Source of the DNA: Candidatus Eiseniibacteriota bacterium
Lineage (GTDB): Bacteria; Eisenbacteria; RBG-16-71-46; DASYSL01
DNA: 30,295 bases
Direction: 5' to 3'
Assembly (NCBI GenBank): GCA_046595725.1
Contig: JBKJOC010000189.1
Coordinates: forward strand, 1-30,295
Numbering within the stretch: the first letter of the stretch is position 1; the number at the start of each line of letters is the position of its first letter. Made by a program: the position numbers and the translations under genes. Below, piece after piece: positions 4,285 through 26,837 of the stretch. The notes beneath the pieces are model-generated. The model was not told the DNA's origin. It did not search any database and saw only the letters and a list, made by a program, of their open reading frames with translations.

Positions 4285-5239
4285 CCTGGGACTCAATGTC
4301 GACGCGCGGAGCAGTAGCCTCGTTCGCGATTCCGTACGGAACATGAACTCCGGCAATGTGCTCCGCGGCGCCTGTCAGATGGATGTCCTGGTCGTCGAAG
4401 AAGATGTGCGGACGGAGAACTTGTAGCACCTTGGCCTTCTCGATGCCACCGAGGAAGAAGGCGTCGTTCACACGAACGCCCCACTCTCGCAGCGAGTGGA
4501 TGGCGCGCTCGTGTGCGGGCGCACTGCGAGCTGTGACCAGCGCGATGCGCAGTCGGGGCCGGTACGACTCATCGTCCAGACGGCGCTGTTCCTCCAACTG
4601 CTGGATGCGATTCAGATCCGCGAGGAGCGGCGTCAGCAGCCCAGGCTCGAGCGCCTCCGCCCGGCGAGCTGTCTCATGCTCCATGTACTCATCGATGCCA
4701 TCGGATTTGTATACCCGCTCTGACGAGTCGTCGGCCAGCACACCATCGAAGTCGAAGGCGATCCGAAGTGTGGGATCGGCGTCGTCGTACTCCGCCTCCG
4801 AGGGAAGAACATGACCGGCCGGGAAGCCGGCACTGATGGCTGCATCCACATCCGGGCGGTTGCCCGAGAGGAACAGCGACATTTCAAGCGCACCGATGTA
4901 CTCGTACGGCGCAACCCCCTGCGTGAAGATCGCTCGAGTCAAGTCGAGTTTGTGCTCGGCAATCGAACGCATCACCCTCAGGCCAGTGTCGGCGTCGTTG
5001 CGCGAAAGAACGATGACCTCGACGACCGGATCCGCCGGCCGAAGGTCGTTCAACCGAAGAAGACGCTGGATGAAAGGGAACGCGACCCCCTTTGGGAGGG
5101 TTGCGGCGATGTGATCGTCCTGATATTTCCGGTACGCAAGCTCGCCGTGTTCCCGGAAGTAGGCATCCGACTCCGTGAGATCGAACAGTGCGCTCGACGC
5201 GACTCCGACGACCAGCCGATCTGAAAGCTCATAAGCCAT
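4277..5239 (-). CDS. 5'-nucleotidase, cN-I type (HAD fold)
   Basis: LVVGVASSALFDL, GVAFPFIQRLL, LRIAFDFDGVLADD, LVTARSAPAHERA, PHIFFDDQ are typical of the PF06189-like family. Confidence 0.9.
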   Translation of the reverse strand: MAYELSDRLVVGVASSALFDLTESDAYFREHGELAYRKYQDDHIAATLPKGVAFPFIQRLLRLNDLRPADPVVEVIVLSRNDADTGLRVMRSIAEHKLDLTRAIFTQGVAPYEYIGALEMSLFLSGNRPDVDAAISAGFPAGHVLPSEAEYDDADPTLRIAFDFDGVLADDSSERVYKSDGIDEYMEHETARRAEALEPGLLTPLLADLNRIQQLEEQRRLDDESYRPRLRIALVTARSAPAHERAIHSLREWGVRVNDAFFLGGIEKAKVLQVLRPHIFFDDQDIHLTGAAEHIAGVHVPYGIANEATAPRVDIESQDD

Positions 5240-10900: not shown

Positions 10901-11009
10901 GCCGCCCATCCCGGATCTCTCCCGTCGGCCCCTGAGGGCCGATGAGGTAGTGACGATCGGGTTGCTCATAAGGCGTGTTGAGGATCGGATTGTCAATCGT
11001 CCCCGTCAT
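7941..11009 (-). CDS. res: Type III restriction endonuclease/helicase (Res), BPTD_3080-like
   Basis: LKMATGSGKT, NDEAHH, SATP, MLTEGWD, C-terminal YIPDF...IIEVSG nuclease motif. N-terminus IDNPILNTPYEQPDRHY supports ATG 11009. Confidence 0.88.
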   Translation of the reverse strand: MTGTIDNPILNTPYEQPDRHYLIGPQGPTGEIRDGRRPSESFIPIAVSRKGKKGGDGSEQEGFDFDATHERREKNSLINDIRRDVDRWRRDGQYAGVTPISRKLLQHWADPTRENRVIFAQREAAETAIFLTEVAGRKEWPTDWRKRLEPENEAHNNGLPRAALKMATGSGKTIVMAMLIAWQTLNKQYAPRDARFTNRFLIVAPGITIRDRLRVLFPEDSENYYDLRDLVPSDLKGGLDSARIVITNYHSFMLRDAKEIKGVAKNTRLLLKGDRKGDPFKETPQAMVSRVLRDLGTDKQQIMVLNDEAHHCYLARPIQTGEKVAKEQAEENEKAGVWFSGLQAIAKQTGIKQIWDLSATPFYLSGSGYNEGYIYPWTVSDFSLMDAIEAGIVKVPRTPVDDDADEDLVTYLRLWDYVGTLLPKRAAKDTVKDWLPPKELEGALRSLYRSYEKAYRHWQTELREYGETPPVFIVVCPNTVVSKLVYDWIAGEAIVEDGEILAHKAGNLPLFSNVVDGQPVARPFSILIDSAQLESGEALKDDFKKAAGLEIAKFKAEYRQRNPGADAEKLSDEDLLREVMNTVGKKGKLGADVRCVVSVSMLTEGWDANTVTHILGVRAFGSQLLCEQVVGRGLRRRNYATNDDGYFEPEYANVYGIPFQFISSDKPIVDPAPPKPSIEVCALEGREHLRIGFPKLDGYRVELPDEDIWLDLENAPVFEIGPNTVPTWVEMGGVVGQRELEDGDPTQYRPKQVAFELAKRILDEQFTTAGDKRPWLFPKLVQICQDWIEQRVELKGDYSLGYLMTITEARVLAAEQVWNAITRHVGNRRERLRPMINRFDPEGSTGEVDFITRKRVVTTEKSEVSHVTLDGKDGNTWEQLMASELELNKNVHAFVKNDHLGFSIPYVHKGRSHSYIPDFLVRLVKHDESDVERTLIIEVSGSQKSPGPTQQKATTARDSWCTAVNNQGGYGRWGYIEMTDPNSFKVRIAEAIQALYDDQPIIGDPELLDFDETHADRSARGA

Positions 11010-11094
11010 GCGCACCCATTCCTGTCGACTCCCTTGAAGTCCCACCCTAGTGAGATCGCGCGCCTCGCGGGCCCCTTCCGCTGACGCAGGCCCA

Positions 11095-11337: not shown

Positions 11338-11484
11338 GGTCGGGACTCCTTCTTCGACGCGGTCCCGAGATTGGACACGCCACACAATGCACGGCACCAC
11401 CGACAGAACCGAGCAAGGCAGATTCGCCTGCGGTCCACGCCTGCTCCTACTAGCCTTTGCTCCGAGGGGATGAGGACGACTCGG

Positions 11485-14400
11485 ATGACCAATGGACTTG
11501 AAGGCTTGACCAGCCTCTCCAGGTCGTCTGATCACCTGGGCAATCTGGCCAACGTTCTTAAGGACCTCGGCGGCGGCGGAACCTTGCTGCACGAATTGAC
11601 GCAGAACGCGAACGACGCCGGCGCGGACCAAGTCCGATTCACCGCGACCGACCACGAGCTCACCGTCTGGAACTCTGCCGTCTTCACCGATTGTGGCCGC
11701 CAGGACCTTCGGCAGTGTCCATGGAAGGTTGACGACGGGAAGCGCAGCTGCGACCTTCACTCGTTCAGACAGGTAGCCGGTCGGCACAAGGCGGACGACG
11801 ACGCCACAACCGGCGCGTTCGGAGTGGGCTTCACTGCCGTGTACCAGATAACAGATCACCCCGAGCTCGTGACCGGCGGAAGTCACCTGGTTCTCGACGA
11901 GTCGCGAGCCGAGGACGACCGCATCGAAGTGTGTCGCCGAAAGTGCGGGCGCGACCACTCGACAGCCGGAACGACCTTCTATCTACCGTGGGCGAGACAA
12001 CAGACGGCGCTGCGCACGGAGCTCGGTGCTTCTGCTCTCGGCGACGATGAGATCACCGATTTAATTGCTGAGATGGCCGCGGCTGCCGGCCCGGCGCTCG
12101 TGTTTCTTGAGCATGTGCAGCGCCTGGATGTCGACGCTCGCGGCATCCCAACCACCGTCACGCGGTCTCCGGATGGAGATCGAGTAATTCTTTCGGTCGA
12201 CGGCGTACGAGGCGAGTGGCTTCTTTTGGCCGGTCGCGCGGCGAGCTCGCAGGAACTCAAGGAACGGTTCGATCAGGGACACTCGCGATCGGACCTCGTC
12301 CAGGTCGCCGTTCCGATAGATGGAGACGTCGTGGGTCGGATCTACGCGGACCTGCCGACGGAAACTCCAAGCGGCTGGAGTGGACATATCAATGGCACGT
12401 TCTTCCCTCGGCAGGACCGGAAAGGGATCGAGTTCGACGGGGCCGGTTTCCGTGGGCGTTGGAACGATCTGCTGATTGACACCGCTGCCCGGATCATGGC
12501 CGAGCAGTTGGAGACCATCGCAAGTGCCCTCGGGCACCGAGTGGCGTGGGCATACGTGGTCGACGCAGAACTAATCAATCGAGCGATTCAAAAATCTGGT
12601 CAGTTCCCACAGGCGTTCGGGGCATTCTTCGAGCAAGCGAAAGCCTCGATTCCGCAGGCACCAATCGTCTTGTTGGTCGACGGCTCGTCGGTGACTCCCC
12701 GTGGCACCGTTGTACCCCGCAACGAGGTTGAGTACGACGCTGCCGACGTACTCGCCAAACTCGGACTTTCGATCATCGATCCTGATCTCCGACCGCTGAT
12801 TCTTCAAATCACGTACACGGAGTATGGGATCCGCCAGCTCAACACCGCCCACATCGTTGACGCCCTCCAGAATGCGGATCTTGTCGAAGCCTGGACACCC
12901 ACCCACACAACCGACTTCACCGCCAGCGACGTCGAGGTCGTCCTCCGCTTGCTCGACAACCTCCAAGATCGAGGCAAGTCGATCCTGGTTGACGCAGGAG
13001 CTGGCGAGGTCGCGATCGTTCCCTGCATCGATGGCTCGTTCGCGGTCGCAGACTCGGTCTCAAGGCTCCATGGCGACGACCGTGCACTGTTCGAACTCCT
13101 AGATCCCGAACTCAAGATCCTCGACGAGCCCCGGCTCGCGGCGCTCTGCCCCGCCCTGGTCGAACTATGCGACGACATCACCCCGAGCCGCGCGATCGAA
13201 ATCTTTGAGGCCGACTCAGAGGCACTCTCTGTTGGTCCCGATCTCGTTTTGGAGTGGCTGGCAAACCACCGGGCTGCCCTCGTCAATGAGGACTTGCGAG
13301 CACGTGTTTGTGCCCTGCCGATCTTCCCGAGTGCGTCAGGCGAGCTTCGGCCTCTCAACGACCTGTCGCTCCCATCCGACTTTGCTGATGTTCTCGGGGT
13401 CGCCGATGTGGTGGATCAAGACAAGATCGCCGGCCACACCGACCTACTGCGTCTCCTCGGTGCCAAGGAACTCGACGCGGCCGAGTACCTGACCAAACAC
13501 GTCGCGCCGTTCGCAGCCGATGGCGAGCTGACCACAGCGTTGGCTGCGGGCGTCCTGGAGATCGTCCACTGGCACCGCCCGGAGCTTGAGGCGCAAGGCG
13601 CACGGGATCTTCTCCGTCGAACCCCGCTCGTGCCATGCACTGACGGCATCATGCGGGTCGGACCCGAAGTGCACCTTCCCAACCGAGCGCTGAGCCTGAT
13701 CGCCCCGGACGCACCCATCGCCGACACAGCGCTCCTCGGGGACCATCTGCGGAGCGCTCTTACCTGGCTAGGCGTCGCTGACCAACCCAGTCACGCCGTA
13801 CTGAACGAGGCCGCTCGACGCCTCGGCGAGGAGGCCGCACAGCCAAACGTCGATGTTGCGCTCGCTGTCCTCAATGCATTGCCAAATCCGCCAGAGTCCG
13901 AAAACCCGCCAGCTGCCCTGAACGAGCTTCGCGCTTCATCCTGGCTTCCGTGCGAAGGGGGCGTACGCGGTCGCCCTGATGAGGTCTTCGCGATCTTCCA
14001 GCGGTACCTCTTCGAGTCCCAGGGCAAGAAGCTGGCCGTCGCCAGAGAGGACCAGCAGCGCCTCACGAAGGTCCTCGACTGGCTGGGCGTCCAAAGCACA
14101 CCGACAACGGCCATGGTCGTGGCTCACCTTCGTCATTGCGCAGAGCGTGGGCTCACCATGAACCCCGAGGTATACAGAGCGCTTGGTCAGGCGAAGGAGG
14201 AGTACCTCGTCACTGCCCTCCGCGGCGTCCCATGCATTCAGGTCGCCCTAGGCGAGTTCGTCGAACCGACCAACGTGTTCTGGTCAGATCCGGGGTTCGG
14301 CTCATGGGCGCAGGTGCTGTCCCCGACAGGCCGTGAGTATCAAGCTTTTTATGACCGCGTACGGGTGAACGAAGCGCCATCGCCGGACCAGATCGAGCAG

Positions 14401-15915
14401 ACGCTACGAGGCATCAGCCGAGCTGCCAGCAACGACCGCCTAGGTGAAGAGGACAAACGCGTCGTCCACCGCTGCTGGGAACTTCTAGATGAGGTCGTCG
14501 GTTCCGCAGGCGAACAATTGGCGCGTCTTGGTGCCATCAAGAGCGCAGTCGGACCGCGGGACATTCTCGAGATGCCCACGATGCTCCTGTTCGCTGACGG
14601 CCGGCGCCTCGCAGAGGGAATCCAGCTGATCAGAGACAACCTTGTCCGGCGAGACAAGACGACCCACCGCGCGCTCGCGGCCGCGGGTGTCCGTGCAGCC
14701 GAGGAGGTCATCACTCCTCATGTGGACGCCGCACTCAGATACGACGAAGCAGCGGACCTGCCGTCGAGGATCCGAGACCGGGTGTCCGCGCTGGAGCGCC
14801 TCGTCGAAGCTCAACGGACCGATGGAATCGACATAGACCTCGACCGGCTTGCGGACCTACGCATCGACGTCATGCCTGAGCTCGCGGTTGAGTACGTGAC
14901 CAGGTTTGCCCATCAGCATCACATTGATCCCCCGCGACCGACCGAAGCCATCTACTTCGCCGATGATCACCGCCTGATCGTGCGTGAAGACAAGCCGAGT
15001 CGACACGTGGGCCGTGAAATCGCTCTCTGTATTGCTCCAGATCTCGACGCCAGCTCCTTGGCTCCGTCAATCACCGAGGTCTTGGTCGCGCCGAGTCTTA
15101 CGGATGCCATGAGTGCGCTGGATGACTATGGTGTGCGCGACCTCGATGCGACGACGTGGCAGCCGGTCGAGAGTCAGTCGGCTGTCGAGGTCGACGTTGA
15201 CGACTCGGAGCGCTGGACCGACGAATCAGAACCGAACCCGGCTGACCCCACCCAAACCCGCGATAGTGATGCCGAGTCCGACCAGATCCCGGACCCGGAG
15301 GACGAAAGTGATCGAACGCTCGAGCATGGCACCGCGGCAGGGAAATCGAATCGCACCAAATCCAAAGCGCGAACGAGATCAGGCACCGGGCAACGGCGAA
15401 CGCAGATGGCGTCGTTCGTCTCGTTCGACGAGGACGAGCGCGAGTTCAACCAATCCGGCGACGAGGCACCCGAACGGTCGGCCGTCGATGAGGCTGGAGT
15501 CGCTCGGGTCCTTACCTACGAGCTGTCCTGCGGCCGCGTTCCCGAAGAGCAGGCCCACAACAACCCAGGCTTCGACGTGCTCTCAAGAGATGACGAGGGC
15601 GAGGTGGTTCGACGCATTGAAGTCAAGTCGATCGGCGGCGCATGGACGGGATTCGGCGTGTGGATGTCCGCCACGCAGCTTGAAGACAACCGCGTATCTG
15701 GAGACGACTACTGGCTGTACGTCGTGGAGCACGCCGAGGACGATGACGCCGCGGTCCTCCACCGGATTCAGAATCCCGCAGCCCGGGCCACAAAGTACGG
15801 CTTCGACGCTGGCTGGCAAGCGCTCCGCGAACCCGACCTCGAACGCGACGAGTCGGGGAAGCCATTGACCAGCGACACGCGCCGCCTACTCGGCTGGACC
15901 TCAGACGGAGCCTGA
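11485..15915 (+). CDS. Sacsin-like GHKL ATPase with internal repeats and C-terminal DUF3883 (NO VEIN C-term) nuclease-like domain
   Basis: ELTQNANDA, WNSAVFT, TGAFGVGFTAVYQITDHP; C-terminal GFDVLS...IEVKS...YWLYVVE. ATG 11485 has GAGG upstream; ORF track starts at TTG 11371. Confidence 0.8.
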   Translation: MTNGLEGLTSLSRSSDHLGNLANVLKDLGGGGTLLHELTQNANDAGADQVRFTATDHELTVWNSAVFTDCGRQDLRQCPWKVDDGKRSCDLHSFRQVAGRHKADDDATTGAFGVGFTAVYQITDHPELVTGGSHLVLDESRAEDDRIEVCRRKCGRDHSTAGTTFYLPWARQQTALRTELGASALGDDEITDLIAEMAAAAGPALVFLEHVQRLDVDARGIPTTVTRSPDGDRVILSVDGVRGEWLLLAGRAASSQELKERFDQGHSRSDLVQVAVPIDGDVVGRIYADLPTETPSGWSGHINGTFFPRQDRKGIEFDGAGFRGRWNDLLIDTAARIMAEQLETIASALGHRVAWAYVVDAELINRAIQKSGQFPQAFGAFFEQAKASIPQAPIVLLVDGSSVTPRGTVVPRNEVEYDAADVLAKLGLSIIDPDLRPLILQITYTEYGIRQLNTAHIVDALQNADLVEAWTPTHTTDFTASDVEVVLRLLDNLQDRGKSILVDAGAGEVAIVPCIDGSFAVADSVSRLHGDDRALFELLDPELKILDEPRLAALCPALVELCDDITPSRAIEIFEADSEALSVGPDLVLEWLANHRAALVNEDLRARVCALPIFPSASGELRPLNDLSLPSDFADVLGVADVVDQDKIAGHTDLLRLLGAKELDAAEYLTKHVAPFAADGELTTALAAGVLEIVHWHRPELEAQGARDLLRRTPLVPCTDGIMRVGPEVHLPNRALSLIAPDAPIADTALLGDHLRSALTWLGVADQPSHAVLNEAARRLGEEAAQPNVDVALAVLNALPNPPESENPPAALNELRASSWLPCEGGVRGRPDEVFAIFQRYLFESQGKKLAVAREDQQRLTKVLDWLGVQSTPTTAMVVAHLRHCAERGLTMNPEVYRALGQAKEEYLVTALRGVPCIQVALGEFVEPTNVFWSDPGFGSWAQVLSPTGREYQAFYDRVRVNEAPSPDQIEQTLRGISRAASNDRLGEEDKRVVHRCWELLDEVVGSAGEQLARLGAIKSAVGPRDILEMPTMLLFADGRRLAEGIQLIRDNLVRRDKTTHRALAAAGVRAAEEVITPHVDAALRYDEAADLPSRIRDRVSALERLVEAQRTDGIDIDLDRLADLRIDVMPELAVEYVTRFAHQHHIDPPRPTEAIYFADDHRLIVREDKPSRHVGREIALCIAPDLDASSLAPSITEVLVAPSLTDAMSALDDYGVRDLDATTWQPVESQSAVEVDVDDSERWTDESEPNPADPTQTRDSDAESDQIPDPEDESDRTLEHGTAAGKSNRTKSKARTRSGTGQRRTQMASFVSFDEDEREFNQSGDEAPERSAVDEAGVARVLTYELSCGRVPEEQAHNNPGFDVLSRDDEGEVVRRIEVKSIGGAWTGFGVWMSATQLEDNRVSGDDYWLYVVEHAEDDDAAVLHRIQNPAARATKYGFDAGWQALREPDLERDESGKPLTSDTRRLLGWTSDGA

Positions 15916-16104
15916 CTCCTCGACCTCCGCCCCAAGCCCATTGCCAACCACCAATGGCTCTTCAATCCCTCGCGCCATAGCCCCCTTCTCACCTGCCATT
16001 TCAGCGGCACGCATGCTATGAAATTCGGTAGGGAAAGCTGCGACCAACTACCCCCTGAACAGCGGTTTCGTGGTTATCGACGGTTGTTGACGGAGGCGAT
16101 TCGG
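15916..16104. promoter_or_regulatory. Candidate oriT/promoter region
   Basis: Non-coding gap directly upstream of the relaxase with short inverted repeats (CCATTG/CAATGG, GGTAG/CTACC). Positional inference only; no nic site recognised. Confidence 0.3.
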
Positions 16105-18645
16105 ATGCACGGCGGCGTGAAGATCTACCGGGGCGCAGCCGCCGCCGCGCGACACTACGTCGAGGCCGATCGCTCACGCGCCGATGACTACTACCTCGCC
16201 GAGGGCGGCGGCGTGGCGATGCGGTTCGTCGCCACCTCGGACAACATCGAACAGCGGGCTGACCTGGACGGTGACAACTACGAGCGGTGGGTGGCCGGGC
16301 TCGACGTCGAGACTGGTGAGCCGAAGGGTCGGCTGCGGCACGACGACCAAGCCGTGCGGTTCGTCGAGGTCACTGTCAACGGCCCAAAGACCTGGTCCCT
16401 CGCAGCGGCGCTGCATCCCGAAATCGCGGCCGTCTACGACAGCGCTCAGCTGGCGGCCGCCGAAGAGATCATCGGTTGGCTGGCCGAGCACGCAACGACG
16501 CGGGTCGGGCCGCAGGGTCGTCAGGTGCAGGTTCCGGTCGAGCGGATCGAAGCAGCTGTCGTACGGCACTTCACCTCCCGAGCCGGCGACCCTCACCGAC
16601 ATCTGCATCTCCAGATCAACGCCCGGGTCTTCGCCGACGGCAAGTGGCGGGGTCTCCATACCGTCGGGGTACGAGACAGCCTCGAGGCAATCAACGGAAT
16701 CGGGCACGCGGCGGTGATGACCAACCCGGCCTTCCGGGCGGCACTGACCGCGCATGGCTTCACCCTCGACAACGAGACCGGTGAAGTCGTCGAACTGACG
16801 CCGTACGCCGGTGCCTTCAGTGCCCGGGCCAAGCAGATCGAATCGAACATCGACACCTACGAGGCTGCCTGGCGGGCCGAGCACCCGGGCGACGAACCAG
16901 GACCGAAGCTTCGGCAGGTCTGGGATCGGCGGGCGTGGGCCGATGCCCGACCAGACAAAGTCGTGCCGACCTCGGGTGTGGAGTTACAGCAGCGCTGGGT
17001 TGAGGAGTTGAACGACCTCGGCTACCGGATGCCTGGGGTTGCGTCGAGCCCTTCTCCTTTACTGCCGGGATCGGTGGACCGAGGCGCCTTGGTCGAGCTC
17101 GCGTTGGCTCGCCTCGGCGTACGAAGGTCCGCCTGGAACTCTGCCGATGCGCGGGGCGAGGTCGAGCGACTGATCGCTGCCACCGGCAGTGTGATCGACG
17201 GCGTCGTTCGGCGTGAGCTGACTGAGGATCTGACCGCCCGCGTCGTGCCGGCCTCGCGGCCGCTTCTCGGCCGGACCGATGTGCCCGAACATGTGCGCGG
17301 GTTGACGTCGAGTGACGTCCTGGCCGTCGAGCACGAGATCGTCGACCGGATCGTCCAGCGCGCGGCGGCGGAGACGATCAAGATCGTGGAGGGTGCGGCC
17401 GGGGCCGGCAAGACCACCCGGTTGGCTGCCACCCGCAGGGCGGTCGAGGACAAGGGACATCGAATGGTGGTGGTGACACCGACCCGGAAGGCCGCGCAGG
17501 TGGCGGCTCGGGAGGTCGGCACAAGCGCCCATTCCGTCGCGTGGCTGCTGCATCAGCATGGGTTCCGCTGGGATGCGGACGGACGTTGGACCCGGGTCCA
17601 CCCATCGCCAGACGGCTCGGCACAACTCCGACGGGGAGACCTTTTGGTCGTAGACGAAGCCGGGATGCTGGATCAAGACACCGCTCGCTCGCTGCTGCTT
17701 CTCGCTGACGAAACCAGCGTCAGGGTGATGTTCGTTGGTGACCGCCACCAACTTCCCGCCGTCGGGCGGGGCGGCGTATTCGATCTCGCGATCCGCTATG
17801 CGCCGGATCGCGTCACCGAGCTCGACAGCGTTCACCGGTTCGTCGATCCGGCCTACGCGGACCTGTCCTTGCGGATGCGCCGCGGCGAGAAGCCAGGCGA
17901 GGTGTTCGACGAACTTCTGAGTCGCGGGGAGATCGTGGTCCACCCCAGCGAGGTCGAACGCCAACAGCAGCTCGCGCTCCGGGCGACGCACAGCGACCTC
18001 GTGATCGCTGACACCCGCGACGAAGTCGGCAAGATCAACCAGCTGGTCCACCAGTTCAGGAAAGCAAATCGGGAGGTCACTGATGACGTGACGACCGCAT
18101 CGGGTGAGCGCATCGGCGTCGGGGACAAGATCGCTACCCGCCGCAACGACCGCGACTCCGACGTCGCGAACCGGGAGACCTGGACGGTTGTTGCCAGCAA
18201 GGTCGGCGCCCTCACGATCGCTGGCGAGTCAGGTCGAAGGGTGCTCCCGTCCGACTACGTGCGCAAGCACGTCGAACTGGCCTACGCGACGACTGCTTAT
18301 GGAGCCCAAGGCTCCACCGTTCCGGTCTCCCACGTCCTCGTCGGCGAGCACACTGGCGCCGCCTCGGCGTACGTCGGGATGACCCGCGGTCGAGAACGCA
18401 ACGTCGCCCACCTCGTCGCCGAGTCGGTCGACGATGCCCGGCGTCAATGGATCGACGTCTTCGGACGCGACCGTGCAGACCTCGGGCCAGCTCATGCCGC
18501 CGGTGCTGCCGCCGAGGCGATCGACCGCTATGGACCGAAGGCGCCGAAGCGACCTGAAGTGCGGCCCCCGAGTCGCCGACGTCGCGAGGAGGAGTTCAGC
18601 CAGCGACCGCCGGCGCCAACCACGGGCCCGGGCCTCGGGCTCTGA
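16105..18645 (+). CDS. MobF (TrwC/TraA-like) relaxase-helicase
   Basis: N-terminal ADDYY tyrosines, GDPHRHLHLQI HUH motif, EGAAGAGKTT, VVDEAGM, VGDRHQL, YGAQG. GGAGG RBS before ATG 16105. Confidence 0.92.
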   Translation: MHGGVKIYRGAAAAARHYVEADRSRADDYYLAEGGGVAMRFVATSDNIEQRADLDGDNYERWVAGLDVETGEPKGRLRHDDQAVRFVEVTVNGPKTWSLAAALHPEIAAVYDSAQLAAAEEIIGWLAEHATTRVGPQGRQVQVPVERIEAAVVRHFTSRAGDPHRHLHLQINARVFADGKWRGLHTVGVRDSLEAINGIGHAAVMTNPAFRAALTAHGFTLDNETGEVVELTPYAGAFSARAKQIESNIDTYEAAWRAEHPGDEPGPKLRQVWDRRAWADARPDKVVPTSGVELQQRWVEELNDLGYRMPGVASSPSPLLPGSVDRGALVELALARLGVRRSAWNSADARGEVERLIAATGSVIDGVVRRELTEDLTARVVPASRPLLGRTDVPEHVRGLTSSDVLAVEHEIVDRIVQRAAAETIKIVEGAAGAGKTTRLAATRRAVEDKGHRMVVVTPTRKAAQVAAREVGTSAHSVAWLLHQHGFRWDADGRWTRVHPSPDGSAQLRRGDLLVVDEAGMLDQDTARSLLLLADETSVRVMFVGDRHQLPAVGRGGVFDLAIRYAPDRVTELDSVHRFVDPAYADLSLRMRRGEKPGEVFDELLSRGEIVVHPSEVERQQQLALRATHSDLVIADTRDEVGKINQLVHQFRKANREVTDDVTTASGERIGVGDKIATRRNDRDSDVANRETWTVVASKVGALTIAGESGRRVLPSDYVRKHVELAYATTAYGAQGSTVPVSHVLVGEHTGAASAYVGMTRGRERNVAHLVAESVDDARRQWIDVFGRDRADLGPAHAAGAAAEAIDRYGPKAPKRPEVRPPSRRRREEEFSQRPPAPTTGPGLGL

Positions 18646-20134: not shown

Positions 20135-20905
20135 TTACGCGCGACGATGATGTCGGCAGCTCAGGCTGTTCTTGCACGGAGTGCCTTGCTTGGTAGGGAG
20201 CCCACATGTGCCGCTCAGTCCGACACGAACAATGAGCGGCGTCGTGTCCTTCGCTGGCAAGAGATGCCCGCTTCGCTTCATCTCTAGTTCGGCGATACTG
20301 AGTCGCTCGGATCGATCGTCCTCGCGCACTATCGCTGCCGATAGCAGCTGTTCGAGAGCTGCCGACGATTGAGTGGCAAGCGTCGCGGCGCACGCTTCAT
20401 CGTTTTGGTCGCGCGAGATGAGGCGCCAGTCGATCACGCGGTTTGAGATTGCCGCTACGTCGTTCAAGAAGACTCGCTGCGTGCGGCCGTTTCCTTCCCT
20501 GAACGGGTGCAACTGATTGATGTCGAGATAGAGCGACGCGATCTCACGCAAGAAGGTCGCATCATCCACGGTCGCGCTCATAAGCAATCCCGCTCGTAAG
20601 CGGTCAAAGATCTTGGTCGCCCGTGCCGCCAACGTGTCCGAAGGCCAGAAACCGTCGGGACCTGCCTTGCCGATCCCGACGGTCCGGAACAATCCGGCCC
20701 ATTCATACACGTCCTGAAAGAGGTGTCTATGAATGGCACTGAGGTGGGAGGCATCAAAGGTCTTGTTCGTTAGACCGTTCCAGCCAAGCAGGCGCGAGTC
20801 AACGAAATCGGCCTCTGCCTGCCGCAACTCATCGCGATCAGTCAACCCCAGACGATTCCGGAGGACGCCCGCGCTTCTGTCGAGATATGGGTCAGACGAC
20901 GCCAT
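20135..20905 (-). CDS. fic: Fic-domain adenylyltransferase toxin, class I (VbhT-like)
   Basis: Canonical HPFREGNGRTQR; N-terminal DPYLD...VLRNRLG; HRHLFQDVYEWAG. Confidence 0.92.
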   Translation of the reverse strand: MASSDPYLDRSAGVLRNRLGLTDRDELRQAEADFVDSRLLGWNGLTNKTFDASHLSAIHRHLFQDVYEWAGLFRTVGIGKAGPDGFWPSDTLAARATKIFDRLRAGLLMSATVDDATFLREIASLYLDINQLHPFREGNGRTQRVFLNDVAAISNRVIDWRLISRDQNDEACAATLATQSSAALEQLLSAAIVREDDRSERLSIAELEMKRSGHLLPAKDTTPLIVRVGLSGTCGLPTKQGTPCKNSLSCRHHRRA

Positions 20906-21071
20906 AGCGCTTGCGGGTACGTAGCAATACCTCGTCCGCGCCGATCTTTCCGTCTACGTAGTCCTGGGCGTCAGCAAAGAAGGCAGCGCTCGGCTCAGAG
21001 CCCTCGAGCCGGCCCGAGTGGACGGCGTCAGCAACTTTCTCACTGCGTTCAATTATCTGCCGTAGGTTCAT
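20892..21071 (-). CDS. vbhA: VbhA-like antitoxin (59 aa), absent from the ORF track
   Basis: Hand-translated MNLRQIIERSEKVADAVHSGRLEGSEPSAAFFADAQDYVDGKIGADEVLLRTRKRYGVV; SGRLEG fits (S/T)xxxE(G/N); overlaps fic start by 14 nt. Confidence 0.88.
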   Translation of the reverse strand: MNLRQIIERSEKVADAVHSGRLEGSEPSAAFFADAQDYVDGKIGADEVLLRTRKRYGVV

Positions 21072-21114
21072 GGGTCACTCTCCGTCCTTCGATAGTTGCG
21101 GTCCGCGTGCCCGA

Positions 21115-21154
21115 GCGAAGCGACTTCATTCTATGTCGCAGGCAACCGCTTCGC
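21115..21154. promoter_or_regulatory. Putative vbhA-fic promoter with nested inverted repeats
   Basis: Minus-strand TAGAAT (21128..21133) enclosed by GCGAC/GTCGC and GCGAAGCG/CGCTTCGC inverted repeats. Confidence 0.45.
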
Positions 21155-21187
21155 CCAACCGCACGACAACGCGTGCCGAACCGGCAG

Positions 21188-21388
21188 CTAACTAAGTAGC
21201 GACTGCGCGCGTTCGATCCGCTCTCGAAGGCCCTGCTGAAAGTTGGGGCTCTCCTTCACGGAAGCGATGTGAGTGTCAATCGCCGCTCGAATCACCTCAG
21301 AGATGGGCTGATTCTCGACATCAGCCACCGTCTCGAGCAGTTCAGCTTGCTCTAGAGACAGCCGGATCGTCATTGCCTTCTGAGTCAT
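21188..21388 (-). CDS. Ribbon-helix-helix (CopG/Arc-like) regulator, 66 aa
   Basis: MTQKAMTIRLSLEQAELLETVADVENQPISEVIRAAI fits the RHH beta-helix-helix pattern. Start at 21388 follows a TTGCAT-N17-TACGTT-N6 promoter. Confidence 0.8.
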   Translation of the reverse strand: MTQKAMTIRLSLEQAELLETVADVENQPISEVIRAAIDTHIASVKESPNFQQGLRERIERAQSLLS

Positions 21389-21394
21389 GCGCAA

Positions 21395-21486
21395 AACGTA
21401 CATCAAGAAACCGTGATATGCAAACACCGTGGCACCTTGGCGTGACGAAACCAATACAGTGGAGAACCGTGATACCGTGGTATCAC
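21395..21486. promoter_or_regulatory. Divergent promoter region with operator repeats
   Basis: Perfect GTGATACC-GT-GGTATCAC palindrome (21469..21486); AACCGTGATA at 21409 and 21465; ACCGTG at 21410, 21426, 21466, 21474; plus-strand TACAGT at 21455. Confidence 0.7.
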
Positions 21487-21528
21487 TTCGTACAACGCGG
21501 AGGGTTCTCGACACCAAGGAGGAGTGCG

Positions 21529-22041
21529 ATGACCGACCAGTCTCGCCCCAGCCCGATCGACATCCACATCGACGGTGTGAAGTACAAGCACCGCCCCGGC
21601 CCGATCACCCCGGCGGAGATCCGCCGGATCGCGGACCCCGACATCCCGGCAGACAAGGACGTCTGGCTCGACATCGACGACGACCTCGACCGTCGCCTCG
21701 ACGAGACCGACACGATCGACCTCGTCGCCGGCATGCATTTCTTCAGCGAGTTCCCCGCGATCACGATCACGATCGACCGGATCCCATACGAGGTGTACGA
21801 ACGCAAGATGACCGGGGCGCAGTTGCGGGTCCTCCCGTCGCCCGACGTGGCCGCGGACCGCGACCTGTGGCTCGACGTTCCCGACGCCCGCGACCGGAAG
21901 ATCCAGGACGAGGACGTCGTTACCCTCAAGGACGGCATGCGGTTCTTCACGGCCCCCGGCCGGATCAACCCGGGCCAGTCCACCGAGGCCGGTCAGGACG
22001 ACCAGGGTGAGGACCAGGGCCACGACGAGGTGACCCGGTGA
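21529..22041 (+). CDS. Multi-ubiquitin-domain protein (two beta-grasp repeats, ...INPG followed by 21-aa extension)
   Basis: Two repeats I.I.ID..Y......T..(E/Q)(I/L)R...P....D.D.WLD.....D........L..GM.FF; AAGGAGGAG RBS before ATG 21529. Confidence 0.85.
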   Translation: MTDQSRPSPIDIHIDGVKYKHRPGPITPAEIRRIADPDIPADKDVWLDIDDDLDRRLDETDTIDLVAGMHFFSEFPAITITIDRIPYEVYERKMTGAQLRVLPSPDVAADRDLWLDVPDARDRKIQDEDVVTLKDGMRFFTAPGRINPGQSTEAGQDDQGEDQGHDEVTR

Positions 22042-22421
22042 AGTTGCCGGCCATCGACAGCCAGTTCCTGAACAAGGCTGGCATCGCCTACCGGACCTTC
22101 GAGGACGGGAGCGGGATGCTGAACGTCGAACTCATCGACTTCCCGCTCCCGCCCGGGCTCACGGTGGCGACCGCGAACATCCTGTTCCGCCTGTCCGCAA
22201 ACTACCCGGACACGCCACCCGACATGTGGTGGACAATCCCGCACCTCACCTCGGTGAAGGGCGGCGTCATCCCCGCGACCGAGCACATCGAGCACTACGA
22301 CGGCCGGACCTGGCAGCGCTGGTCGCGGCACCTCGACCCGCAGGCGTGGCGCCCCGGGATCGACAGCCTCGAGAGTTACGTGCGCCTCCTGCGTAACGAG
22401 CTGGAGGTGGCCGCGGCATGA
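22038..22421 (+). CDS. Prokaryotic E2/UBC-like protein (family E), cysteine-free
   Basis: FPLPPG...ILFRLSANYPDTPPDMWW...WQRWSRH...WRPGIDSL; no Cys in the 127 aa; GTGA overlap with the Ubl gene. Confidence 0.85.
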   Translation: MKLPAIDSQFLNKAGIAYRTFEDGSGMLNVELIDFPLPPGLTVATANILFRLSANYPDTPPDMWWTIPHLTSVKGGVIPATEHIEHYDGRTWQRWSRHLDPQAWRPGIDSLESYVRLLRNELEVAAA

Positions 22422-23830
22422 TCGCTCAGGTGACCGCGGTCGAGGCCACGCTCTGTGTCGACGACCGGATCTACGACGACCTGTACGGCGCCGCGATCGG
22501 CCAGCTCGAGACCGGAGCGGTCGTGCTCGCCACCATGGTCACCTCCCCGACCGGTCAGGTGCGGCTCAAGGCGACCAAGGTGATCCCGGTGCCTGACGAT
22601 GCGTACCTGGTCAGGAAGAAGGACAGGCTCACGATCGGCTCCGAGGGTTACATGCACGCCCTCGCCGAGGCCGAGGCGACCGGCATGGTCGCGCTCTGGG
22701 CGCACACGCACCCGGGCGACGGGTCGCGGGTCTCGCCCAGCCGGCACGACCTGGTCGTGAACGACGAGTTGCGACAGGTGTTCGCGCTGCGTTCTTCCCT
22801 GGCGACGTACGGGTGGATCGTTCTGGGGCACCAGGACGGGCGGCTATCGTTCACTGGCGCCCTCGAGTCCGAGGGCCAGGAGCAGGTCCGGATCACGCGG
22901 CTGAACGTCGTGGGTAGCCGTTTCAACAGGCTGGTCGCCCAGGACGAGCGCGGGGCGAAGGACGCCGACGGGCTCCCGGACCTCTTCGACCGCAACATCC
23001 GCGCCCTCGGCACGGAGGTCCAGAAGGTCATCAGCGACCTGACCTTTGGCCTCGTCGGTGCTGGCGGGACCGGCTCCGCTGTGGCGGAGCAGCTCGTACG
23101 CCTCGGCGTACGCCGGCTCATCATCATCGACCCGGACACCCTCTCGATCAGCAACACCACGAGGGTCTACGGGTCGACCCCGGCCGACGTAGATCGACCG
23201 AAGGTCGAGGTCCTCGCCGACCACCTCAAGCGGATCGCTCCGGACCTCCAGGTTGAGATCGTCCAGGGGGACATCACAGCCGAGGCGGTCGCCCGGCGAC
23301 TTCTCGACGCCGACGTGGTCTTCGGCTGCACTGACGACAACGCCGGCCGGCTCCGCCTGTCGCGGCTGCCGTACTACTTCGATATCCCCGTGATCGACTG
23401 CGGTGTCATCCTCACCTCCGACAGCAACGACATCATCGAGGGGATCTTTGGCCGCGTCACGGTCCTTCACCCCGGCACCGCATGCCTGATGTGCCGCGAC
23501 CGTATCGACCTGGGGCGCGCCGAGGCCGAGGTCAGGGAGGTTGCTGAGCAGGAGCGTCTCGAGCGCGAGGGTTACGCGGCCGCTCTGCCTGGCGTCGAGC
23601 CGGCTCTGGTCCCGTTTACCACGATGGTCGCCGCATGGGCGGTCAGCGAGCTGCTCGAGAGGCTCATCGGCTACGGCGAGGACCCGACGCCGAGCGAGAT
23701 ACTGCTCCGGGTTCACGACCGTCGGGTCGGAGCGAACCTGCAGCCGCCGACGGAGGGCCACTACTGCGACCCCGACAAGCAGCTCGAGCACGACGAGGAC
23801 ATGTTCCTCGGGATGAACTGGACGCGGTGA
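22418..23830 (+). CDS. JAB/JAMM peptidase - ThiF/E1 adenylyltransferase fusion
   Basis: N-terminal E..G and HTHP-x8-SRHD; C-terminal GAGGTGS, IDPD, SNTTR, GCTDD, CLMC. ATGA overlap with the E2 gene. Confidence 0.9.
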   Translation: MIAQVTAVEATLCVDDRIYDDLYGAAIGQLETGAVVLATMVTSPTGQVRLKATKVIPVPDDAYLVRKKDRLTIGSEGYMHALAEAEATGMVALWAHTHPGDGSRVSPSRHDLVVNDELRQVFALRSSLATYGWIVLGHQDGRLSFTGALESEGQEQVRITRLNVVGSRFNRLVAQDERGAKDADGLPDLFDRNIRALGTEVQKVISDLTFGLVGAGGTGSAVAEQLVRLGVRRLIIIDPDTLSISNTTRVYGSTPADVDRPKVEVLADHLKRIAPDLQVEIVQGDITAEAVARRLLDADVVFGCTDDNAGRLRLSRLPYYFDIPVIDCGVILTSDSNDIIEGIFGRVTVLHPGTACLMCRDRIDLGRAEAEVREVAEQERLEREGYAAALPGVEPALVPFTTMVAAWAVSELLERLIGYGEDPTPSEILLRVHDRRVGANLQPPTEGHYCDPDKQLEHDEDMFLGMNWTR

Positions 23831-23832
23831 TC

Positions 23833-24177
23833 ATGGCGAAGTCGAACTGGCACACGATACTAAGCGGGCTCCTTGGCCGAGTCCTCCGACGCGTTCGGAT
23901 CCCGGGGCCTCCCGTGAACTCGGTCTTCGACGTCCCTGACCACCTGCCGCGGAATACCGGTGTGGTCGTCCGCAAAGGGGACGCCGATCAGTGGCTCGCG
24001 TTCGACTGCCCCTGCCGGGCCAGGCACCGCGTGATGCTCAACCTGGACCAGCGGGCCTGGCCGGTTTGGACGGTCCACGAGTCGGCGCCGCTCACGCTCG
24101 TGCCGAGCGTCGACGAGAAGACCGAACACGGACGGTGTCACTACGTCATCAAGAAGGGAAAGATTCGATGGGTGTGA
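23833..24177 (+). CDS. DUF6527-like small Cys/His protein
   Basis: WLAFDCPC...H.VMLNL...P.W....LTLVPSV....RCHYVIKKGKIRW. Real start ATG 23833 (or GTG 23827 overlapping the E1 stop). Confidence 0.72.
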   Translation: MAKSNWHTILSGLLGRVLRRVRIPGPPVNSVFDVPDHLPRNTGVVVRKGDADQWLAFDCPCRARHRVMLNLDQRAWPVWTVHESAPLTLVPSVDEKTEHGRCHYVIKKGKIRWV

Positions 24178-25244
24178 ACGAGGCAAACGAGAACGCAGGA
24201 GACGCGACCCGCGTCGATGCGGACAAGGCCTTCGAGGGTCCGTCGAAGGCCAGCGGGGAGGAGCCCGACATCCGGGTCGGTGCCGACGCGGCGGAGAGCC
24301 TTGCCCCGGGCCTGCCTGCGGAGCCGGCGATCCCCGCGGTCCCGACCCTGACGCCGACCCCTACTCCTGTCCCCCTGGCGACCGGGACGCAGACACGCGG
24401 CGTCAAGCGGACCCCGTTGTTTGCGGCCATCAACGCCGCGCGCTACGGGCGACAGGAGGCGATCGGCGAGATCGAGCAACTCACAGGTCGCACCTTGATC
24501 TGCCTCGTCGGCGAGAATGCCCTGATCGAGCGCGTCCACGTACCTGCCTTCGCCGACCTGCTGCACAACATCGACAAGGGCACCGGCATCGACCTGATGG
24601 TGAACAGCCCCGGCGGAGACATCGACACCGCAGAGAAGCTCATCACCTTGGTCAGGAAGAAGGCGGGTGACCAGTCGGTCCGGGTGATCGTGCCGGCCTA
24701 CGCGAAGAGCGCGGCGACCCTGATCGCGCTAGGAGCGCAGGAGATCGTGATGAGCGAGACGTCTGAACTGGGCCCGATTGACCCCCAGGTCACGCTCGTC
24801 GACGGTAACGGTCACAAAACCGTGCACTCAGCACAGAACTACGTCACGACCTACGAGGAGTTCGCGAGCAAACTTCAGAAGGACCCGGATGACATCGTCG
24901 CCAGGTTGATGCTCGACAAGCTCGACCCCGTCACCCTGCGCAAACTCACGCGATCAATGAAGCGGTCGAAGTCGATAGCCGCGGAACTGCTTCAGACTGG
25001 CATGGTGCCGAACGAGGCGGAAGCCTTGGCCATCGCTGACGCCCTCGCGGACACGAAGCGTTGGCACTCGCACGGGCAAATGATTGGCCACGAGAAGTGC
25101 GTGGGGCTCGGCCTGAAGGTTACGTACCTTCCCAGCTCGTCTGACCTTTGGCAGTTGCTTTGGCAGCTCTATTGCCTGCAGACATGGCATCTGAAGAGCG
25201 ATACCACTCTCTTCGAGAGCCGCATCGCGTCCCTGCTTATCTGA
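24168..25244 (+). CDS. SDH-family Clp-fold serine protease with Pro/Ala-rich N-terminal extension
   Basis: DLMVNSPGGD, VPAYAKSAATLIALGA.EI.M...SELGPIDPQ, HSHG. Start at ATG 24168 or GTG 24174, both overlapping the previous stop. Confidence 0.87.
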   Translation: MGVNEANENAGDATRVDADKAFEGPSKASGEEPDIRVGADAAESLAPGLPAEPAIPAVPTLTPTPTPVPLATGTQTRGVKRTPLFAAINAARYGRQEAIGEIEQLTGRTLICLVGENALIERVHVPAFADLLHNIDKGTGIDLMVNSPGGDIDTAEKLITLVRKKAGDQSVRVIVPAYAKSAATLIALGAQEIVMSETSELGPIDPQVTLVDGNGHKTVHSAQNYVTTYEEFASKLQKDPDDIVARLMLDKLDPVTLRKLTRSMKRSKSIAAELLQTGMVPNEAEALAIADALADTKRWHSHGQMIGHEKCVGLGLKVTYLPSSSDLWQLLWQLYCLQTWHLKSDTTLFESRIASLLI

Positions 25245-25285
25245 CCAGTTCGGTGCGCTGATTCGCGCAACCAGAACTGGGTCAG
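25241..25285. terminator. Imperfect long hairpin right after the protease stop; possible terminator
   Basis: CTGAC-CAGTTC-GGT-GCGC ... GCGC-AACC-A-GAACTG-G-GTCAG nested complementarity between convergent genes; no U-tract. Confidence 0.5.
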
Positions 25286-25475
25286 TCGCCCGCGGCGAAG
25301 ACCGTGTGGCGCCTGCTGTCTGGGTCGAGACGGAACCTGTGCTTTCGGGACTCGCCAAGCGCCACCTCCAGTGCATGCTGGCTAGCCCTTTCCGCGGCTG
25401 CAATAGCTTCACGATCTGTGTCATCTTTGCTGGATCGCGAGTGATCTCCGAAGATTCTCTCGGTGACAAGTGTTC

Positions 25476-26837
25476 TCATGCGTCAGACTCCTCACCCTTA
25501 GACAGCGATTCCATTTTGGATACTACGTCCGCCAGGGTCTGCTGCATCGCCCAACTTGGGTTGCGCTCGTGGCTGAAGTAGTGCTTCCGCTTCACCCAAA
25601 CGAAGCCGTCACCCTTAGAGATCACGGCAACGTCCGTAGCGCCGCCGACAGTCTCGTGCTGGCGATCCAGACTGACCCGGTTCCGAAGTGAAGTCAGTTC
25701 AACCAAGTTCTCGGCCAGATCTGCGATCTCACGTTTCGACAGAAACGCTGCGCTTGCCTCGATCGGCTCGACTCGGCGGCGGTGCACATCGTCCATGTAG
25801 GTCGCGAAGTCATTCCAGGAGGTGTTCATGTACCTCCGCGTCGCGGCACGCACCCTCTTCAGTTGGTTGGCTCCCATCTTGGGCGCCTCCGCCTTCACGA
25901 TCTCGAAGAGGGCGGTGTGGATCCCACCGGCCCAGGTCTGCCAAAAGGACGTGATGCTCCGCGCGACCGCGGGGTCGATGCCCTGCAGGAACATCACTGC
26001 TTCGTTCGTCTGCGCATAGGCGTGGATCAGAGCAGGTCGAGACGACGAAACTCGTTCGGCAGTCCCGTCTACTCGCACGAGTCTTCCTTCAACAAAGCCA
26101 GCGATCCTGCAGTGAGAAACGCCAGGGAACAGCTCCTCATTGCCGAAACCACAGATCACGACACCCGACCACACGGCGTTCTTCTCGGGAGGATTTAGCC
26201 GAAGGATGACCTTTAGAAGAACCGTCGCAAACTTCTTCCGAAGCTGGACCGTCAACGACAACTCCTTGAACTTCGACGGCAACATCTCAACGATCGCCGC
26301 GTGCCACTTTGCAAGGAACTCGTCCTCGTCGATCCCGTGCGCCCAGTCCAGGATCGGGAGCCCACCCATCTGACTGTCGACTTCATCCAACTTCTTCGAG
26401 AACAAGTTGCGCCGTTCAAGCTTGCTCGGTTCCTCCGCGACGAGTTCCTCAATAATCCCGTTGAGGAGCAACAAACAGAACGGGACCGCAAGAGTCTGGA
26501 GCATCTCCTCCTCGTCGATGGCACCCTCGACGTCAGGGATCGCCTTCTGTACATACGAAAGAAAGTCATCTACGTACTCGTCGAGCCGATCAAAGCGCGC
26601 CAACCGGTGCTTCTCCCGATATGACTTGACCAGCGATTCCCAAGGGATGCCGGCGATCTCGGCGCTGTTGTAGACCATCAGGCCTACCGGTACGCCTTTG
26701 ACCAACTCGAACAGTTTGTTGGCTTCGACATACGTCTTCATGACCTTGGGAGACTCTGGGCCGCTAGTAATGGTCACGGCACTATCGGCGGCAAGAGCAA
26801 CCGCAGACTTATTCAGAATCGCGATCTCGGTGGTCAA
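25476..26837 (-). CDS. Hypothetical protein with proteasome-beta/HslV-like (Ntn-hydrolase) N- and C-terminal motifs
   Basis: TTG start with AAGGAG RBS; mature TTEIAILNKSAVALAADS places Thr1 and Asp17 in register; NKLF; C-terminal TVGGATDVAVISKGDG. CDS is confident, fold call is inferred. Confidence 0.7.
   Translation of the reverse strand: MTTEIAILNKSAVALAADSAVTITSGPESPKVMKTYVEANKLFELVKGVPVGLMVYNSAEIAGIPWESLVKSYREKHRLARFDRLDEYVDDFLSYVQKAIPDVEGAIDEEEMLQTLAVPFCLLLLNGIIEELVAEEPSKLERRNLFSKKLDEVDSQMGGLPILDWAHGIDEDEFLAKWHAAIVEMLPSKFKELSLTVQLRKKFATVLLKVILRLNPPEKNAVWSGVVICGFGNEELFPGVSHCRIAGFVEGRLVRVDGTAERVSSSRPALIHAYAQTNEAVMFLQGIDPAVARSITSFWQTWAGGIHTALFEIVKAEAPKMGANQLKRVRAATRRYMNTSWNDFATYMDDVHRRRVEPIEASAAFLSKREIADLAENLVELTSLRNRVSLDRQHETVGGATDVAVISKGDGFVWVKRKHYFSHERNPSWAMQQTLADVVSKMESLSKGEESDA

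Follow-up and report, generated by a model that had tools for sequence, protein, structure and literature searches.

A stretch of 30,295 nucleotides from Candidatus Eiseniibacteriota bacterium (contig JBKJOC010000189.1, positions 1-30295; hereafter the window) was found to carry, at 21529-25244, a ubiquitin-like conjugation operon of the Bub type that ends in a gene for a serine protease with a predicted ClpP-like fold. Comparison of related loci shows that one discrete, cross-phylum Bub clade regularly includes this protease. The cassette of the clade has six fixed parts, namely a divergent ribbon-helix-helix (RHH) gene with a GGTATCA-repeat operator and genes for a ubiquitin-like protein (Ubl), an E2, a JAB-E1 fusion, BubE and the SDH-type protease (Table 1). 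The best explanation overall, which we favour with moderate confidence, is that of a six-part-clade Bub operon in which the protease serves as an effector coupled to tagging, the RHH protein acts as a repressor and the setting is one of defence. By sequence comparison the Bub membership is solid, and the added conserved parts, the protease and the RHH gene with its operator, are new parts with proposed functions.

Distribution of the protease-bearing operon

All six sampled homologues of the protease (47-71% identity) were located after bubE in the same cassette order. Their hosts were Rhodococcus fascians, Williamsia herbipolensis, Micropruina glycogenica, Pelomonas (Betaproteobacteria) and metagenomic contigs. 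A second set of 80 metagenomic loci was retrieved by E2 alignment, independent of the protease, and 41 of these contained bubE together with at least 500 bp downstream. The protease directly followed bubE in 38 of the 41, a count that overstates the independent cases because the 80 loci contain near-duplicates. Loci whose E2s were at approximately 50% identity still carried the protease. The bubE-protease junction was overlapping or near-touching in most loci, with start/stop overlaps kept from Actinomycetota to Pseudomonadota, and the divergence of the E1 was correlated with that of the protease (Spearman 0.51).

The same association could be observed on plasmids. PLSDB contained 46 plasmids with a Bub-type E1, and the seven with an E1 of at least 47% identity were exactly the seven with a protease orthologue (at least 44%). 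The next-best E1s reached 40% identity at most, and the next-best proteases reached 48% at most over short stretches. Protease-bearing cassettes were present on Methylocystis, Rhizobium and Phenylobacterium plasmids. No protease was found at any of the 17 DUF6527 sites of canonical Bub among 401 sampled alphaproteobacterial genomes, and the one canonical operon inspected in detail had the classic BubAB and BubCD arrangement without a protease. Among 206 genomes of the window's own phylum, the sole other Bub operon was likewise without the protease, and the cassette was absent from the window's five congeners. In a phylogenetic tree of the E1 proteins, all operons with the protease fell into a single group (50 rows), separate from canonical Bub (support 98/88 for the outgroup split and 85/83 for the clade branch). 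A preliminary description of this DNA, made from the sequence alone, had noted the protease as coupled to the Bub genes and had counted its absence from homologous operons as part of a case against the linkage; the protease was present in homologous operons of one clade, but it is not a general Bub feature.

In the window itself, the five open reading frames (ORFs) named in that description were all located, with overlapping or near-touching stop and start codons, and could be assigned to Pfam families. The Ubl and E2 genes overlap by 4 nt, as do the E2 and JAB-E1 genes; a gap of 2 nt separates the JAB-E1 gene from bubE, and bubE overlaps the protease gene by 10 nt. The latter two genes are translationally coupled. 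A ribosome-binding site, AAGGAGG, lies at 21516-21522 upstream of the ATG of the Ubl gene. The hairpin reported after the protease gene was also recovered as a stable stem-loop (z = -5.0 against shuffles), and none of 200 shuffles folded as well. No T-run or U-tract was present 3' of this stem-loop. A scan of 21000-25600 detected neither a sigma-70-type promoter nor a T-run terminator, which is unsurprising at high GC. The public sequencing runs that contain window DNA were of soil metagenome DNA from one study, with no RNA run among them. Since the same gene order and coupled junctions recur in dozens of unrelated contigs, the arrangement is not due to chance. Beyond the five genes, the divergent RHH gene with its operator is also conserved and makes a sixth part, which the description had missed.

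One decayed cassette was also observed on a plasmid of Microbacterium sp. SGAir0570 (locus L126; NZ_CP027930.2, 5035-8826). The E1 gene of this cassette was truncated and overlain by an annotated antisense ORF; the protease was split into three pieces annotated as 'hypothetical protein'.

Conjugation proteins and protease of the window

The operon family 6E/DUF6527 has been renamed Bub, with Citrobacter sp. RHBSTW-00271 as the type example (Ye, Gong, Chambers & Corbett, bioRxiv 10.1101/2024.11.21.623953). The published system uses the JAB domain to expose the C-terminal Gly of the Ubl; the sites that carry the Ubl are a crossover-loop Tyr (Y370) in the E1 and a Ser (S333), accompanied by H335 and D299, in the E2. 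BubE, the DUF6527 protein, was experimentally shown to be a Ser-His peptidase with the dyad S92/H102 that removes conjugates. Operons with a separate Ubl and E2 are already listed in Table S1 of the same preprint as Type I Bub, 'DUB+E1 fusion'. The Ubl-E2 fusion (BubAB) of the type example was absent from the window, and the first four genes are, as judged by homology, a complete Type I Bub operon in this split form. The operon can be assigned to Bub, not Bil, because the closest solved relatives of its E1 and E2 were BubCD and BubB of Citrobacter and because the published catalytic residues were all conserved. The resemblance of the first three genes to Bub, noted in the preliminary description, was confirmed by the same matches.

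Residue conservation was checked across 46-82 orthologues. The window Ubl has two beta-grasp domains, followed by INPG (G149) and an acidic tail of 21 residues. G149 was invariant in 80/80 sequences, and all of them had C-terminal tails of 1-26 residues; the presence of INPG and then a variable tail in every Ubl indicates that these proteins are precursors that need trimming. Two beta-grasp domains were observed in 18 of the 80 related Ubls, which correspond to the window's own actinobacterial-type subclade. The other Ubls, including all sampled proteobacterial ones, had a single domain that matches the second domain of the window Ubl.

The closest Protein Data Bank (PDB) match of the E2 was Citrobacter BubB (9eae_C, 2.6e-12) with the QRWSRH motif aligned, and S96, H98 and D62 aligned to S333, H335 and D299 of BubB. 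D62 and S96 were invariant, H98 was conserved in 81 of the 82 sequences, and the window protein is free of cysteine. For the JAB-E1 protein, the closest PDB match was Citrobacter BubCD (9ea4, 1.6e-22) over residues 45-424. This protein has the JAB domain at its N-terminus and a single ThiF domain; the JAMM residues E31/H96/H98/S108/D111, the adenylation residue R249 and the crossover-loop Y386 (equivalent to Y370) were 99-100% conserved. The Pfam model Prok-JAB gave no match to the window protein. S92, H103, C59, C61, H65 and C102 of BubE were invariant in 46/46 sequences. The preliminary description had called this gene DUF6527-like, which was correct as to the family, but the protein is BubE, itself a Ser-His deconjugating peptidase. 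Likewise, the SDH protease was correctly noted, but the operon holds three peptidases (JAB, BubE and the SDH protease) and not one. The Ubl, E2, BubE and SDH protease have no counterpart among the PADLOC models, and the ThiF domain was touched by generic CBASS E1-E2 models only.

The protease matched the SDH_protease family PF01972 at 56.5 bits (cut-off 31.3). The stricter NCBIfam equivalog NF047768 was not reached (68.8 bits against a cut-off of 250), as for a divergent member. The family PF01972 is defined by the order Ser, Asp, His. Identification of the protein as ClpP was rejected, as PF00574 scored 20.0 bits against a cut-off of 20.2 and the residue order was Ser-Asp-His. S181 (AKSAAT), D205 (GPIDPQ) and H302 were invariant among homologues, as were the GG of SPGGD, K157 and K180. 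The AlphaFold model had an overall predicted local distance difference test (pLDDT) score of 85.6, with residues 82-358 at high confidence. Residues 1-56 scored below 50 and are predicted to be disordered; values stayed below 90 up to approximately residue 80, and this stretch was variable among homologues. The predicted architecture therefore comprises a disordered N-terminal region of approximately 80 residues, a ClpP/crotonase-like core and a helical C-terminal domain. The fold of the core resembles stomatin-specific protease 1510-N, SppA and ClpP, with the PF01972 proteins MJ1495 and MJ0137, both uncharacterised, as its closest matches. No signal peptide or membrane segment was detected in the protein, and no AAA+ gene was present in or beside the window cassette. 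With its predicted S181/D205/H302 triad and ClpP-like fold, the modelled protease looks active.

A profile of the protease clade recovered 418 representatives (50% clustering) at 1e-30 or better. Among relatives ranked by the profile, a member at 1e-66 was still linked to Bub, and members at approximately 1e-51 and below were standalone. Two distant SDH-protease relatives (L129:6294-7268 and L101:4938-5843) were standalone genes adjoining integrases in prophage-like elements, a position typical of accessory or defence cargo. No fusion of the protease with BubE or Ubl occurred among the longer matches of the representative search. The phage collection yielded no close orthologue, all matches being at or below 36% identity, and a genome-contig scan with the single protease sequence returned one short irrelevant match in Agrobacterium.

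The literature searched contained no link between the PF01972/SDH-type family and Ubl systems. The preliminary description could not place the protease in a described system, and in agreement with this, no ClpP-like/SDH protease or RHH regulator was found in the two Bub preprints, Table S1, the 2026 CapK/CapS paper, the 2006 Iyer-Burroughs-Aravind survey or full-text family-name searches, a comparison outside which lie the final Nature Structural & Molecular Biology version of Ye et al. (PMC12885553), Millman et al. 2022 and the Burroughs/Aravind E2/RING papers.

Regulation, the position after bubE and genomic setting

The RHH protein was 68-88% identical in every sampled orthologous cassette, which makes it the best-conserved cassette product. 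Of 61 metagenomic loci that extended far enough upstream, 53 had the RHH gene there in divergent orientation. Of 62 distinct intergenic regions between the RHH and Ubl genes, 55 contained the motif GGTATCA, and the usual operator form was a tandem GTGGTATCwwGGTATCA directly after cTTGTCAA; such a tandem operator would overlap a promoter. The control region of the window has ACCGTG(A/G)TA repeats and a perfect palindrome, GTGATACC-GT-GGTATCAC, at 21469-21486. The RHH protein is a candidate repressor of the operon, and no RHH regulator was found among the Bub regulators named in the literature searched. In two loci (L015:6456-7417 and L128:3314-4272), the RHH gene is replaced by a CapH/CapP-like pair (helix-turn-helix protein and Peptidase_M78). 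DNA-damage-responsive control is already known for Bub and CBASS, and the presence of the pair in some members ties the clade to such control.

Two of the three metagenomic exceptions to the protease after bubE carried a dCTP-deaminase defence gene in its place (L052:2464-4128 and L093:11186-12745). The deaminases were 520-560 residues long, with gaps after bubE of 14 nt (L052) and 63 nt (L093), and matched PADLOC dCTPase at 1.6e-138. Between the two loci, the E1s were 60% identical and the deaminases 57% identical, so that the link between the deaminase and Bub is old. Both loci were nested within the protease-bearing clade of the E1 tree (subclade support 100/96). The position after bubE thus behaves in the manner of the effector slots found in other defence operons.

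The window as a whole represents a defence island, carried by an element that is both integrative and mobilisable (Table 1). Thirteen of the 45 loci with sufficient sequence upstream of the cassette also had a Fic gene there, as did the Methylocystis, Rhizobium and Phenylobacterium plasmids. The Fic/VbhA pair is a facultative neighbour of the cassette, and the RHH protein may control both this pair and the Bub operon. In other loci, a relaxase, a TraG/VirD4 coupling protein or type IV secretion system genes adjoin the cassette. This setting of mobile elements and defence islands suggests a defensive role, with phages or rival mobile elements as the targets and abortive infection as a possible means. 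A 453-residue ORF at 25476-26837 (-), convergent on the operon end, was rejected as a part of the system; it had no Pfam, NCBIfam or PADLOC match and was not conserved beside other cassettes.

Table 1. Features of the operon and of its surroundings in the window
Feature	Position	Strand	Evidence
RHH (CopG/DUF6290-type) DNA-binding protein gene, 65 residues	21188-21385	-	Pfam RHH_1 8e-05, DUF6290 1.3e-05
Divergent control region	21386-21528		ACCGTG(A/G)TA repeats, palindrome, ribosome-binding site
BubA-like Ubl precursor gene	21529-22041	+	Pfam Multi_ubiq 1.8e-14
BubB-like E2 gene, GTG start	22038-22421	+	Pfam Prok-E2_E 1.3e-31
BubCD-like JAB peptidase-E1 fusion gene, ATG start	22418-23830	+	Pfam ThiF 6.3e-39
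BubE (DUF6527) Ser-His peptidase gene with Zn site	23833-24177	+	PF20137 4.3e-17
SDH-type ClpP-fold serine protease gene, 358 residues	24168-25244	+	PF01972 2.8e-15
Stem-loop at protease stop codon, likely operon end	25241-25285	+	-32.7 kcal/mol
Integrase-like gene	14-1405		
UvrD-PD-(D/E)XK helicase-nuclease	1480-4356		
PDC-S08 5'-nucleotidase	4277-5239		2e-135
Type III methyltransferase	5246-8005		
ResIII helicase	7941-11045		
Tiamat TmtA	11371-15915		PADLOC E = 0
TrwC relaxase	16018-18645		
Fic toxin gene, 3' of RHH gene on same strand	20135-20905	-	Fic 3.7e-15
VbhA-type antitoxin gene	20892-21071	-	VbhA 3.9e-13

Possible role of the protease and comparison with known systems

In the mechanism favoured here, the JAB domain would trim the Ubl tail after G149, and the E1 would adenylate the Ubl and carry it on Y386. 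The E2 would then take the Ubl on S96 and transfer it to lysines of target proteins, and BubE (S92/H103) would reverse the attachment. These steps combine the published Bub biochemistry with the residue conservation observed in the window clade. The SDH protease would be the output (effector) enzyme of the clade, with proteolysis coupled to tagging. The protease would most likely be switched on or off by the conjugation machinery; action of the protease on tagged proteins is less likely. Such switching is favoured because a dCTP deaminase can replace the protease and because no unfoldase is present. The preliminary description had offered two options, tagging linked to proteolysis and a protease effector activated by conjugation, and the deaminase replacement speaks for the latter. 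The RHH protein would bind the repeats over the promoter and keep the operon repressed.

A tag-and-degrade scheme was also considered, in which targets such as phage proteins would be marked with the Ubl, recognised through it by the ClpP-fold protease and degraded, as a minimal analogue of ubiquitin-dependent proteolysis. The co-inheritance and translational coupling of a conjugation machine and a Clp-fold protease, and the intact predicted triad, are consistent with this scheme, and the deconjugase BubE could recycle the tag as in eukaryotes. However, no unfoldase partner is encoded, and the nearest structural relatives, 1510-N and SppA, cut peptides or flexible termini. Nor is a dCTP deaminase a fitting substitute if the protease forms a degradation arm, and the authors of the Bub work consider Ubl conjugation unlikely to be a degradation signal in bacteria. 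The scheme is judged to be rather unlikely. A self-contained bacterial tag-and-destroy system, in which Ubl attachment directs targets to, or licenses, the ClpP-fold protease as a mobile immune or competition weapon, is also considered unlikely; if it were true, it would represent an independent prokaryotic coupling of Ubl conjugation to dedicated proteolysis.

The protease might instead be a third Ubl-processing peptidase, which trims the pro-Ubl after G149 or recycles conjugates and so shares or replaces the work of JAB and BubE. Every Ubl of the clade has a tail to be removed, and the JAMM spacing is unusual (HxHx9SxxD), with Pfam Prok-JAB scores weak or absent. However, conservation is 99-100% for both the JAMM residues and the BubE dyad, so that both known peptidases look functional from their sequences. 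The dCTP-deaminase operons without the protease retain tailed Ubls, and canonical Bub operons work without an SDH protease. Such a role appears improbable.

A comparably low probability is given to an independent passenger, that is, a standalone mobile-element gene with a defence, exclusion or plasmid function that became locked beside one Bub lineage with no biochemical coupling. The standalone relatives beside integrases described above would fit such an origin, and defence genes are known to cluster by adjacency. However, the association is near-complete in both directions within the clade, the overlaps with bubE persist across distant phyla, and the junction leaves no room for a separate promoter.

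Several points weigh against the favoured role of the protease as an effector coupled to tagging. The link between the protease and tagging rests on genomic association, whose metagenomic count is inflated by near-duplicates, and up to 2026 phage protection had not been demonstrated for any Bub operon. Since the operon encodes two other peptidases, the third could be redundant housekeeping. ClpP-like degradation of folded proteins is made less likely by the lack of a nearby AAA+ unfoldase gene. The deaminase after bubE could reflect defence-island adjacency and not effector exchange, as dCTP deaminase is a self-sufficient single-gene defence.

The biochemistry of Bub is well described, and the protease is a first candidate for the output enzyme of the pathway. 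The clade offers several handles for study, namely a fixed protease with intact predicted catalytic residues, two loci with a proven anti-phage enzyme in the same slot, and a simple candidate repressor and operator as a way to induce the system. It also provides a natural test of the view of the Bub authors on degradation signals in bacteria. The published operon catalogue, which was built on four gene families, misses these conserved accessory parts.

Compared with the Type I Bub operon of Citrobacter, the window cassette shares a Ubl with a conserved C-terminal Gly, a cysteine-free Asp/Ser/His E2, a JAB-E1 with the crossover Tyr, and BubE. It differs by the addition of the SDH-type protease and the divergent RHH regulator, neither of which is a listed Bub component. 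Furthermore, the Zn site of the window BubE is C2HC and not C4, with one ligand His for Cys, and the JAMM spacer is two residues longer. Bil also consists of Ubl, E2, JAB and E1 operons on defence islands and conjugates the Ubl to proteins, and it acts by directly tagging a phage tail protein. In contrast to the window operon with its cysteine-free E2, Bil has catalytic cysteines and an E1 of the IAD-AAD-CYS type, and it has neither DUF6527 nor a protease effector.

The protease shares a ClpP/crotonase-like core, a nucleophile Ser in G/A-x-S-A and the Ser-Asp-His order with the SDH-type proteases (PF01972; MJ1495/MJ0137), 1510-N/NfeD and SppA. It is distinguished from these relatives by its own helical C-terminal domain, a disordered N-terminal extension and the lack of a membrane anchor. 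The dCTP deaminase defence (PADLOC dCTPase) shares with the protease the same position after bubE in the two nested operons, but it is a nucleotide-depleting enzyme unrelated to proteases and a single-gene system. Type II CBASS with Cap2/Cap3 resembles the proposed arrangement in that an E1/E2-type machine and a reversing peptidase tune an operon-encoded enzyme, with swappable effector genes at the operon end. However, CBASS conjugates the CD-NTase itself and uses cyclic nucleotide signalling, whereas the window cassette has a free Ubl and no nucleotide cyclase, and the last gene of cassettes of its type encodes a protease or, rarely, a dCTP deaminase.

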